A stretch of DNA of 33,104 bases from a virus (Duplodnaviria; Heunggongvirae; Uroviricota; Caudoviricetes), in IMG/VR virus record IMGVR_UViG_2563366897_000003; one strand, given 5' to 3'. Positions 16,131-16,893 of this stretch are shown piece after piece. Under the pieces are notes generated by a model, which made no database searches, was not told where the DNA came from, and saw only the letters and a list, made by a program, of their open reading frames with translations. The position numbers and the translations under genes were made by a program. Position 1 is the first letter of the stretch; the number at the start of each line of letters is the position of its first letter.

Positions 16131-16222
16131 TGCTTCCAGGTAGAGAGGGGCTGGACGCAGGAGAAAAATGAAAGAGCCAGCGGTTATATTTTTGTCATGG
16201 CTGACGAGGAATGATGGAAGAA

Positions 16223-16245
16223 GGCGTTGTATGCCACACAACGCC
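16223..16245. terminator. hairpin terminator separating convergent transcription units
   Basis: 8-bp perfect stem GGCGTTGT/ACAACGCC with a 7-nt loop, T-rich sequence on the plus side; lies between the end of the TonB-like gene (+) and the end of a minus-strand gene. Confidence 0.45.
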
Positions 16246-16252
16246 TCACTGT

Positions 16253-16432
16253 TCATTTCTTCTTTTTCTCTGGTGGAACCCGATGAATAAGAGTTGCACT
16301 GGTTTCCGATGAGATGGCGATATACTCGGGCAAAGTATGCTGGCAGTTTTCCAACTGGTCAAAAATACCTGCTCTCGTCTGTTGCAATGCCTGCAGCATG
16401 CGGCGGCAATGCGCCTTGCTTTTACTAACCAT
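16253..16432 (-). CDS. hypothetical small protein (59 aa)
   Basis: Internal ATG of track ORF 16253..16606 preceded by strong GAGGAAGGAAAG SD; MVSKSKAHCRRMLQALQQTRAGIFDQLENCQHTLPEYIAISSETSATLIHRVPPEKKKK. Confidence 0.4.
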   Translation of the reverse strand: MVSKSKAHCRRMLQALQQTRAGIFDQLENCQHTLPEYIAISSETSATLIHRVPPEKKKK

Positions 16433-16493
16433 CTTTCCTTCCTCTATCAGTCGCTGCGTGAACTCATCATGTAATACCAGGTAAATGCGGATG

Positions 16494-16745
16494 TTATCGG
16501 TTTTGGCTACGCAGCATAGTACAAAACGGACAGGTGCATCCCGGGACGGGGGAGGCGTCACATGTCCCTGTGATGGTTGTTCCGGGTAATGCACTGTGTG
16601 GGGCATAAAAATGTCCGATAATTTTACTTTCTACCGCAGTTAGTTGATTCGTTGGTCCTGGTAGCACATTGGGCGAGGATTTAAATGCCAGGCAACTGAA
16701 GGATGATGTTGCAAGGGAGATAGCGAGAATATTTCTGATTTTCAT
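16494..16745 (-). CDS. secreted cysteine-containing small protein (83 aa precursor)
   Basis: Internal ATG of track ORF 16494..16814; N-terminal signal peptide MKIRNILAISLATSSFSCLA; mature part has 4 Cys (TGTCDASPVPGCTCPFC); AT-rich; minus strand, next to cos. Confidence 0.4.
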   Translation of the reverse strand: MKIRNILAISLATSSFSCLAFKSSPNVLPGPTNQLTAVESKIIGHFYAPHSALPGTTITGTCDASPVPGCTCPFCTMLRSQNR

Positions 16746-16893
16746 TTGATGATGCCTCTGTGTGAAATGACGGTAAACGACGCACTTGTGCCGGCACATA
16801 ATAGCAAGCACCATAATAGATCAGATTCGATTCTTGCTGTAAGTGATAATTATTCTCGTTTTCGGGTCCTTTCCGTCGATCCAACAGGTTACG

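Follow-up and report, generated by a model that had tools for sequence, protein, structure and literature searches.

Lambda bor and other morons between the lysis cassette and cos are small, independently transcribed minus-strand genes for envelope proteins, present in some phages and absent from others. PliG, a periplasmic inhibitor of g-type lysozyme that belongs to the Zur regulon and is encoded by Gifsy-1 in Salmonella, is small, Sec-exported, placed behind a Zur operator and carried by a prophage. The gene described here, designated X, encodes an 83-residue precursor at 16494..16745 (minus strand, stop codon included) of a 33,104-nucleotide stretch of DNA (IMG/VR record IMGVR_UViG_2563366897_000003), the whole of which is called the window below and is a lambdoid, phage-21-like prophage of Escherichia coli. 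X resembles the bor-type morons in where it lies and in its logic, and PliG in its compartment, its predicted operator and its carriage by a prophage; it is homologous to neither. Bor has no sequence similarity to X and bears the lipobox of a lipoprotein, whereas X bears a signal peptidase I site and a Cys18 that is not conserved. PliG has a mature form of 111 residues, solved structures (4dy3 and 4dy5) and a known target, whereas X has a predicted mature form of 63 residues, a four-Cys motif and no detectable homology to PliG. Both systems are also neighbours of X: bor adjoins it in Salmonella islands and lies 0.8 kb from it in phage 21, and pliG is its immediate upstream neighbour in Salmonella.

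Three other comparisons are relevant. ZnuA and ZinT, whose zinc ligands are mainly His and acidic residues, share the predicted regulon and the compartment of X, and ZnuA-family genes lie beside X in Erwinia; both proteins, however, are far larger than mature X, which has four Cys, one semi-conserved His, no homology to either and only putative metal binding. The heat-stable enterotoxins STa/STb, EAST1 and the class II microcins, Cys-rich secreted peptides of E. coli, are, like X, small, exported, Cys-containing and often located on mobile elements. Their Cys spacing differs from that of X, and microcins use double-glycine leaders and dedicated exporters. In contrast, X stands alone, encodes a Sec signal and is found behind a predicted Zur operator in genera that are not pathogenic; it gave no enterotoxin or microcin family match in Pfam or NCBIfam, and no export or maturation genes were found nearby in any context examined. 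Finally, an open reading frame (ORF) of the DUF3950 family (YnfO/YlcI type) occupies the same cos-proximal minus-strand slot, following X in a second prophage lineage and standing in lambda behind the same Fur-box-like motif, but it lacks a signal peptide and is unrelated to X, and also to the 59-residue ORF that follows X in the window. With modest confidence, the locus is read here as a one-gene moron encoding a periplasmic mini-protein of a zinc-limitation family, not as a toxin and its partner.

Coding evidence and distribution of gene X

Annotations of this 0.7-kb stretch contradict one another, and the real ORF therefore has to be recognized by its conservation. In L002 and L022, the RefSeq records examined, the Prokaryotic Genome Annotation Pipeline (PGAP) calls only the 59-residue minus-strand ORF and omits X; the curated phage 21 record has two plus-strand ORFs instead (40 and 60 residues); a third record has minus-strand ORFs of 117 and 67 residues; and many other gene callers give X as 106 residues, starting from an ATG at 16814. 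The omission of X by PGAP while the neighbouring ORF is annotated in its 59- or 48-residue form is a systematic annotation gap. Many spurious ORFs of at least 90 residues exist within the window, and an ORF of the size of X is not in itself beyond chance; X is considered real because it is conserved, not because of its length.

Protein searches identified full-length homologues of X (79-85 residues, 25-77% identity), all of them without a name, in nine enterobacterial genera: Escherichia, Salmonella, Citrobacter, Klebsiella, Buttiauxella, Superficieibacter, Erwinia, Serratia and Pantoea. A profile search of genome contigs with a narrower alignment found five loci only. Codon alignments of seven lineages gave ratios of non-synonymous to synonymous substitution rates (dN/dS) of 0.09-0.29, with synonymous sites near saturation. 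Among 77 near-identical copies drawn from IMG/VR loci, phage records and two chromosomes, X has four synonymous and five non-synonymous changes, conservative and outside the Cys motif, with no indels and no stop codon; the corresponding polymorphism ratio (pN/pS) is 0.41, and variant density is 3.6 per 100 nucleotides, versus 6.1 in the 59-residue ORF. The ATG of X lies inside the longer 106-residue ORF, the N-terminal extension of which is not conserved; the start at 16745 is backed by a conserved MKI N-terminus and by a conserved Shine-Dalgarno (SD)/ATCATCA(A/G)ATG context. The SD itself may be read as AGAGG (16755..16759, minus strand), 9 nucleotides upstream of the ATG, where homologues have a purine-rich element in the same place.

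Codons 1-20 (16686..16745, minus strand) encode a signal peptide, MKIRNILAISLATSSFSCLA, with the basic n-region, hydrophobic core and small residues at -3 and -1 that characterize Sec substrates. In the window copy these elements are MK-IR, ILAISLATSSFS and C-L-A followed by F; relatives have A-x-A followed by FQ, within a family-wide pattern of A-x-A and F(Q/K), and the arrangement is conserved across 75 sequences. Signal peptidase I is predicted to cut after C-L-A (residue 20), leaving a mature protein of 63 residues that begins FKSS. Anchoring as a lipoprotein through Cys18, which lies within the signal peptide, was considered and rejected: S-F-S-C misfits the lipobox [LVI][ASTVI][GAS]C, and the residue is Ala or another in most relatives. 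The family signature is G-T-C-x-A-x-P-V-x-G-C-x-C-x-F-C-T-x-L-R (codons 60-79; 16509..16568, minus strand), in which C62, C70, C72 and C75 are spaced C-x7-C-x-C-x2-C. Across the 75 sequences C70, C72 and C75 never vary, and at least 90% retain C62; in a set of 26 sequences all four are invariant. The family also shares a central segment, E-x2-I-x3-F-Y-S-x-H. Both the coordinates of the 83-residue ORF and its signal peptide and four mature Cys, which a prior sequence-only reading had proposed, are borne out, the latter two by conservation across the family. Family scans of X with Pfam, NCBIfam, PHROG and PADLOC gave no match, sequence and profile searches gave no relative in the PDB, and the searched literature does not describe the family. 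X is a real gene under purifying selection with an export signal; it represents an undescribed, uncharacterized Enterobacterales family, the product of which is presumably periplasmic.

X is a standalone and mobile gene that travels alone. The segment of the window from 15700 to 17100 is 99-100% identical to the right ends of phage 21 (OL657228), ev017, Perceval and several PhiR phages, all of which possess X, and to parts of more than 1,200 complete E. coli chromosomes; the segment with X is present in about 1223 of 5426 complete E. coli genomes (~23%). Lambda and most lambdoid records lack X. In the second prophage lineage (L012-14), 72% identical, X lies beside Nu1 and cos and is followed by a DUF3950 gene instead of the 59-residue ORF; in L012 a 44-residue ORF with a lipoprotein-like signal (LLSAC) and the DUF3950 ORF come after X (4345-4479 and 4641-4835). 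At least 64 Klebsiella plasmids, large and conjugative, carry X with a cos remnant upstream; the copy, for which plasmid CP024459 (L004, 3840-4252) stands here, is unannotated and 64% identical, with insertion sequence (IS) elements downstream. In Citrobacter koseri (L015, 3885-4300), X is directly beside icd with a decayed, disrupted cosN upstream and a good Zur box. Because icd is the attachment site of phage 21, this copy looks like a prophage remnant, apparently all that is left of a phage-21-like prophage and kept as a host gene. The Salmonella islands have the gene order pliG-X-bor-omptin, with X 95 nucleotides downstream of pliG, and another Salmonella branch has the order traT-DUF1090-X. 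X also occurs at various places in the chromosomes of Citrobacter, Serratia, Erwinia, Superficieibacter and Pantoea, and a FecI/FecR/TonB-dependent receptor operon runs divergently from one homologue. The variable presence of X between conserved modules of otherwise syntenic phages fits a moron or lysogenic-conversion gene. The sequence-only reading had compared the locus with bor and suggested a lysogenic-conversion function, and that comparison holds for X, which is a genuine, variably present minus-strand gene for an exported Cys-containing mini-protein in a bor-like slot between the lysis cassette and cos.

Predicted zinc-related regulation and genomic context

The Zur box of gamma-proteobacteria has been described as AATGTTATAWTATAACATT (PMC2706843) and as GAAATGTTATA-N-TATAACATTTC with a RNNNYRNNRYNNYRNNNY skeleton (PMC4219657), and experiments have established that Zur controls pliG in E. 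coli (PMC4219657). Upstream of X, GTTAT-N3-ATAAC palindromes, often preceded by an extra GTTAT, were found in C. koseri, Citrobacter JGM124, two Buttiauxella, Serratia, Erwinia and Superficieibacter. They score 14-17/19 against the Zur box, match the skeleton at 18/18 in three lineages, and end either 17-27 or about 92-99 nucleotides upstream of the ATG. Six of the seven lineages with such boxes are non-phage; the seventh is the C. koseri prophage remnant. In 180 kb comprising the window plus the loci compared, seven distinct sites score at least 15/19: five are directly before X, one (15/19) is before the pliG gene that lies upstream of X in Salmonella, and one is before a znuA-like gene.

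The neighbourhoods of X point the same way. In Pantoea, X is preceded by thrS-like, hexapeptide (cam-like), folE2 and dksA-paralogous genes and followed by a ZigA-like cobW, a Fur-family regulator and a cysS-like gene; the dksA paralogue has one Cys and is therefore of the DksA2 type (C4-less). In Superficieibacter, X follows thrS-like, dihydroorotase (pyrC-like) and porphobilinogen synthase (hemB-like) genes; in Erwinia, it is flanked by two ZnuA-family genes; and in the Klebsiella plasmids a cobW (ZigA-like) and Fur-family pair is 0.7 kb away. An earlier suggestion that X is a toxin or signalling peptide gains no support from these contexts: its homologues in Buttiauxella, Pantoea, Erwinia, Serratia and Superficieibacter are single chromosomal genes of environmental or commensal genera, behind Zur-type operators or in zinc-starvation islands, which suggests metal or envelope physiology. 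Because of the Zur-type boxes and zinc-related neighbourhoods of its relatives, the X family is quite likely to belong to the zinc-starvation response.

The copy in the window is different. Its best Zur match is 10/19, or 14/20 for the structure-based pattern, which is background, and zinc control is not predicted for it. A consensus promoter scan upstream of X called none. A candidate extended -10 element, TGcTATTAT (16798..16806, minus strand), was read from the sequence and the alignment; this stretch aligns with the Zur-box-like palindromes of related phage copies, and its own Zur score is background. At the aligned position the L012 and Klebsiella (L004) copies have partial palindromes and the C. 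koseri remnant has a good one, which suggests that a Zur operator may have decayed in the phage 21 lineage.

Further upstream, a Fur-box-like palindrome, GAAAACGAGAATAATTATC on the minus strand (16845..16863; 15/19 to GATAATGATAATCATTATC), abuts cosQ and ends about 100 nucleotides from X. Fur matches of at least 15/19 occur in about eight places in the 180 kb. The motif is conserved beside cosQ in lambda, which lacks X, and so it need not regulate X; it may be part of cos, or an iron-regulated or generic promoter for cos-proximal minus-strand ORFs. The lambda version is GTAGATGATAATCATTATC (16/19, including a perfect 15-mer; NC_001416 48447-48465, L041 2148-2166), and a third cos lineage, that of the 72%-identical phage copy, has a 15/19 version (L012 3861-3885). 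The same DUF3950 ORF lies by cos in lambda (L041 about 1810-2004, minus strand), in a region where RefSeq has the plus-strand lambdap79. No link between cosQ and Fur was found in the searched literature. In Salmonella, between X and bor (L008, L019 and L024, about 4322-4358), there is a Fur-box-like palindrome of 15-16/19, for example GAAAATGATAATATTTATC, upstream of bor, which suggests iron control of bor in these islands.

According to the favoured interpretation, X would have a promoter of its own, located between cos and the ATG, and be transcribed in opposition to the late operon, and its 83-residue product would be exported by Sec and cut after residue 20 to give a 63-residue periplasmic, possibly released, mini-protein. 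The C-x7-C-x-C-x2-C motif would either form two disulfides or ligate a metal ion. Because non-phage relatives of X are predicted Zur targets among zinc-starvation genes, its job would concern the cell envelope under zinc limitation, most plausibly the binding or handing over of Zn(II) in the periplasm. Lambdoid phages may have captured X next to cos, the C. koseri remnant keeping a Zur operator that the copy of phage 21 and the window would have lost; the latter may be expressed constitutively or under other control, possibly by iron and Fur. Continued purifying selection on the window copy indicates that it is still in use. The 59-residue ORF would be untranslated or dispensable sequence in a long 3' tail of the X transcript, ending near a hairpin at 16223-16245. 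We infer Zur control in vivo, a metal-related function and expression in lysogens; direct metal handling in the periplasm, taken separately, is a possible but somewhat doubtful role.

Several observations count against this account, beginning with the background Zur score of the window copy. The Zur boxes are in silico matches only, and the Salmonella TraT/DUF1090 branch has only a Zur half-site. Zur control is no proof of metal handling either, for PliG is Zur-regulated yet inhibits lysozyme. In the oxidizing periplasm, four Cys would be expected to pair as disulfides more often than to build a Zn(Cys)4 site. AlphaFold2 models of X from alignments of 15 and 75 sequences had predicted local distance difference test (pLDDT) scores of 47.6 and 55.8, too low for a fold or a metal site to be assigned. 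With respect to the 59-residue ORF, the polymorphism counts are small (nine single-nucleotide polymorphisms each for it and X), though they agree with its missing co-conservation, and this ORF has a good SD and is listed by PGAP and PHROGs.

Alternative roles and flanking features

X could instead be an envelope-defence factor, a disulfide-stabilized periplasmic protein that binds or inhibits an antimicrobial protein of the host or of a competitor, in the manner of PliG, Ivy and MliC; zinc limitation would then be only a cue for being in the host, and the phage copy would improve the survival of lysogens in animals. In the Salmonella islands X comes immediately after pliG and is followed by bor and an omptin gene; another Salmonella branch has it next to traT, and in phage 21 and remnants related to it bor/iss is close by. 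PliG demonstrates that a Zur-controlled periplasmic protein need not handle zinc, and four periplasmic Cys favour disulfides. Against this, X sits amid paralogues of cytoplasmic zinc-sparing function in Pantoea and Superficieibacter and between znuA-like genes in Erwinia, the genera in question are environmental or plant-associated, and family and PDB searches gave no similarity to known inhibitor families. Such a role is unlikely, but it and the zinc role are both more likely than the three explanations that follow.

That X serves the phage, as a periplasmic superinfection-exclusion or receptor-masking factor acting on TonB-dependent outer-membrane receptors, perhaps with the neighbouring lipoprotein that has a TonB C-terminal domain, is improbable. 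X does adjoin this phage-borne lipoprotein gene, but the latter is on the opposite strand, in the late operon, and is missing from the other phage contexts of X (L012-14); the homologue beside the FecI/FecR/TonB-dependent receptor operon and the Fur-box-like motif upstream of phage copies fit such a role, but most homologues of X are chromosomal and far from phages, and PADLOC gave no match.

Little can be said either for X as a silent passenger, which would have lost its Zur promoter in this phage lineage and been kept only by hitch-hiking with cos, and we regard this as quite improbable. The window copy is without the Zur box that the C. koseri remnant has, intermediate palindromes are found at the aligned position in L012 and L004, and no consensus promoter was called; yet the 77 copies of X have neither indel nor stop codon while the neighbouring ORF accumulates them, X has the lower variant density and the pN/pS and conservative changes reported above, and its SD is intact.

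The remaining explanation, and a very improbable one, is that X and the 59-residue ORF form a two-gene lysogenic-conversion module of a secreted toxin or signalling peptide and a cytoplasmic partner (immunity protein, chaperone or regulator): both are on one strand with 61 nucleotides separating them, a hairpin follows the two but none intervenes, and the second has a strong SD, a PGAP annotation and a PHROG of its own, but missing co-conservation largely refutes such a module, and X, a lone chromosomal gene in non-pathogens, is unlike enterotoxins and microcins.

The 59-residue ORF (WP_000253883.1; phrog_4843; 16253..16432, minus strand) has the position and the strong SD that the sequence-only reading gave it, the SD-like GAGGAAGGAAAG (16433..16444, minus strand) abutting its ATG, which is internal to the 117-residue ORF. 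It is confined to E. coli DNA of at least 98% identity, and none was found next to divergent X loci, where bor, IS elements, the DUF3950 gene or housekeeping genes are present instead. Family scans with Pfam, NCBIfam, PHROGs and PADLOC matched only phrog_4843, its own near-identical family, and a relationship to the DUF3950 gene of L012 was rejected when BLASTP gave no alignment. In the 77 copies it has two synonymous and seven non-synonymous changes and two frameshifting indels (pN/pS 0.92), and its SD is altered to GAGTAAGG in two; one of these, strain LH50-c, also has a one-base insertion after codon 6. Truncated 48-residue forms are on 486+138 contigs, versus at least 1000 contigs with the full form. 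The proposed gene pair therefore fails for want of co-conservation and because of neutral polymorphism and frameshifts in its second member; the possibility that both ORFs are random and non-conserved, checked in relatives, is contradicted by the conserved family of the 83-residue ORF and upheld for the 59-residue ORF. The latter is probably not a functional gene, and the simplest reading of 16246-16493 is a 3' tail of the X transcript that extends to the hairpin.

This hairpin, GGCGTTGT/ACAACGCC (16223..16245), separates the TonB-like gene from the X transcript that converges on it and is the only strong one of the stretch. Its perfect 8-bp repeat, noted earlier, makes a stable stem, with predicted RNA folding energies of -18.8 kcal/mol on the minus strand and -21.8 on the other (z about -3.5 for both versus shuffles). 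Its tail, UUCUUCC, is a weak U-tract (four U in eight bases), and the terminator scan did not accept it, the T-run being short; it may act as a weak terminator of minus-strand transcription. An Rfam search of 15500-17300 gave only a chance microRNA match on the hairpin. The small RNA svsR, of the NC-SV prophage at icd, was considered as an explanation of the non-coding stretch and dismissed as irrelevant, since it lies at cI. The plus-strand ORFs of the phage 21 record were considered as genes and set aside, being disrupted in some haplotypes: the 60-residue ORF is shortened to 45 residues in the window by the variable site 16472, and a one-nucleotide insertion also strikes it. The 40-residue ORF (16168-16290; CPT_21_74 in the phage 21 record, missing from PGAP) has a strong SD (AGGAG, 5 nucleotides before the ATG) and spans the hairpin.

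On the plus strand, the gene order of the window is lysozyme, small ORFs, Rz/Rz1 and the TonB C-terminal-domain lipoprotein, followed by cos, Nu1 (from 17075) and terminase A (from 17553). By correspondence with the phage 21 annotation, cosQ spans 16864-16870 and the cohesive end spans 16884-16895. The ORFs are located, as originally described, between the TonB-like gene (15804-16130, plus strand; Pfam TonB_C, 7e-13) and cos. They were also said to lie in AT-rich DNA, which the base composition does not clearly bear out: their G+C content is 44-49%, a modest difference from the 52-57% of the flanks, and clearly low values (39-41%) are limited to the promoter and cos region, 16700-17150. The TonB_C lipoprotein has a lipobox, LAVGC, and the orientation of the late operon; its PHROGs label, 'Rz-like spanin' (phrog_1267), looks mislabelled. 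It might interfere with TonB-dependent receptors, for example to exclude TonB-dependent phages or colicins. Phage 21 has a bor gene between Rz and the TonB-like gene, which is missing from the window prophage (window 15494-15803 versus L001 1800-2604). In the lysis cassette of the window, additional small ORFs (PGAP WP_001446668.1 and WP_001280932.1) separate the lysozyme gene from Rz.

Implications of the family

RefSeq leaves unannotated a conserved gene under purifying selection that is present in phage 21, a well-studied phage, and in ~23% of the complete genomes of E. coli. Interest in the window copy is limited by its lack of the Zur operator that makes the family interesting, and the biochemical role of X is deduced rather than demonstrated. 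We put forward only tentatively, as a proposal less likely to be right than wrong, that X represents an unrecognized family of Zur-controlled, Sec-exported Cys4 mini-proteins that function in periplasmic zinc capture and hand-over and have been spread by lambdoid phages and Klebsiella plasmids. If X is a PliG-like defence factor, it would be a new envelope-protection gene; if it handles zinc, it would be a new and very small periplasmic player in a pathway considered well mapped in the Enterobacterales; and if it captures zinc and hands it over, lambdoid phages and Klebsiella conjugative plasmids would have spread an unannotated fitness gene, now in about a quarter of E. coli genomes. The X family ties prophage and plasmid cargo to the zinc-starvation response, which is relevant to survival under host nutritional immunity.

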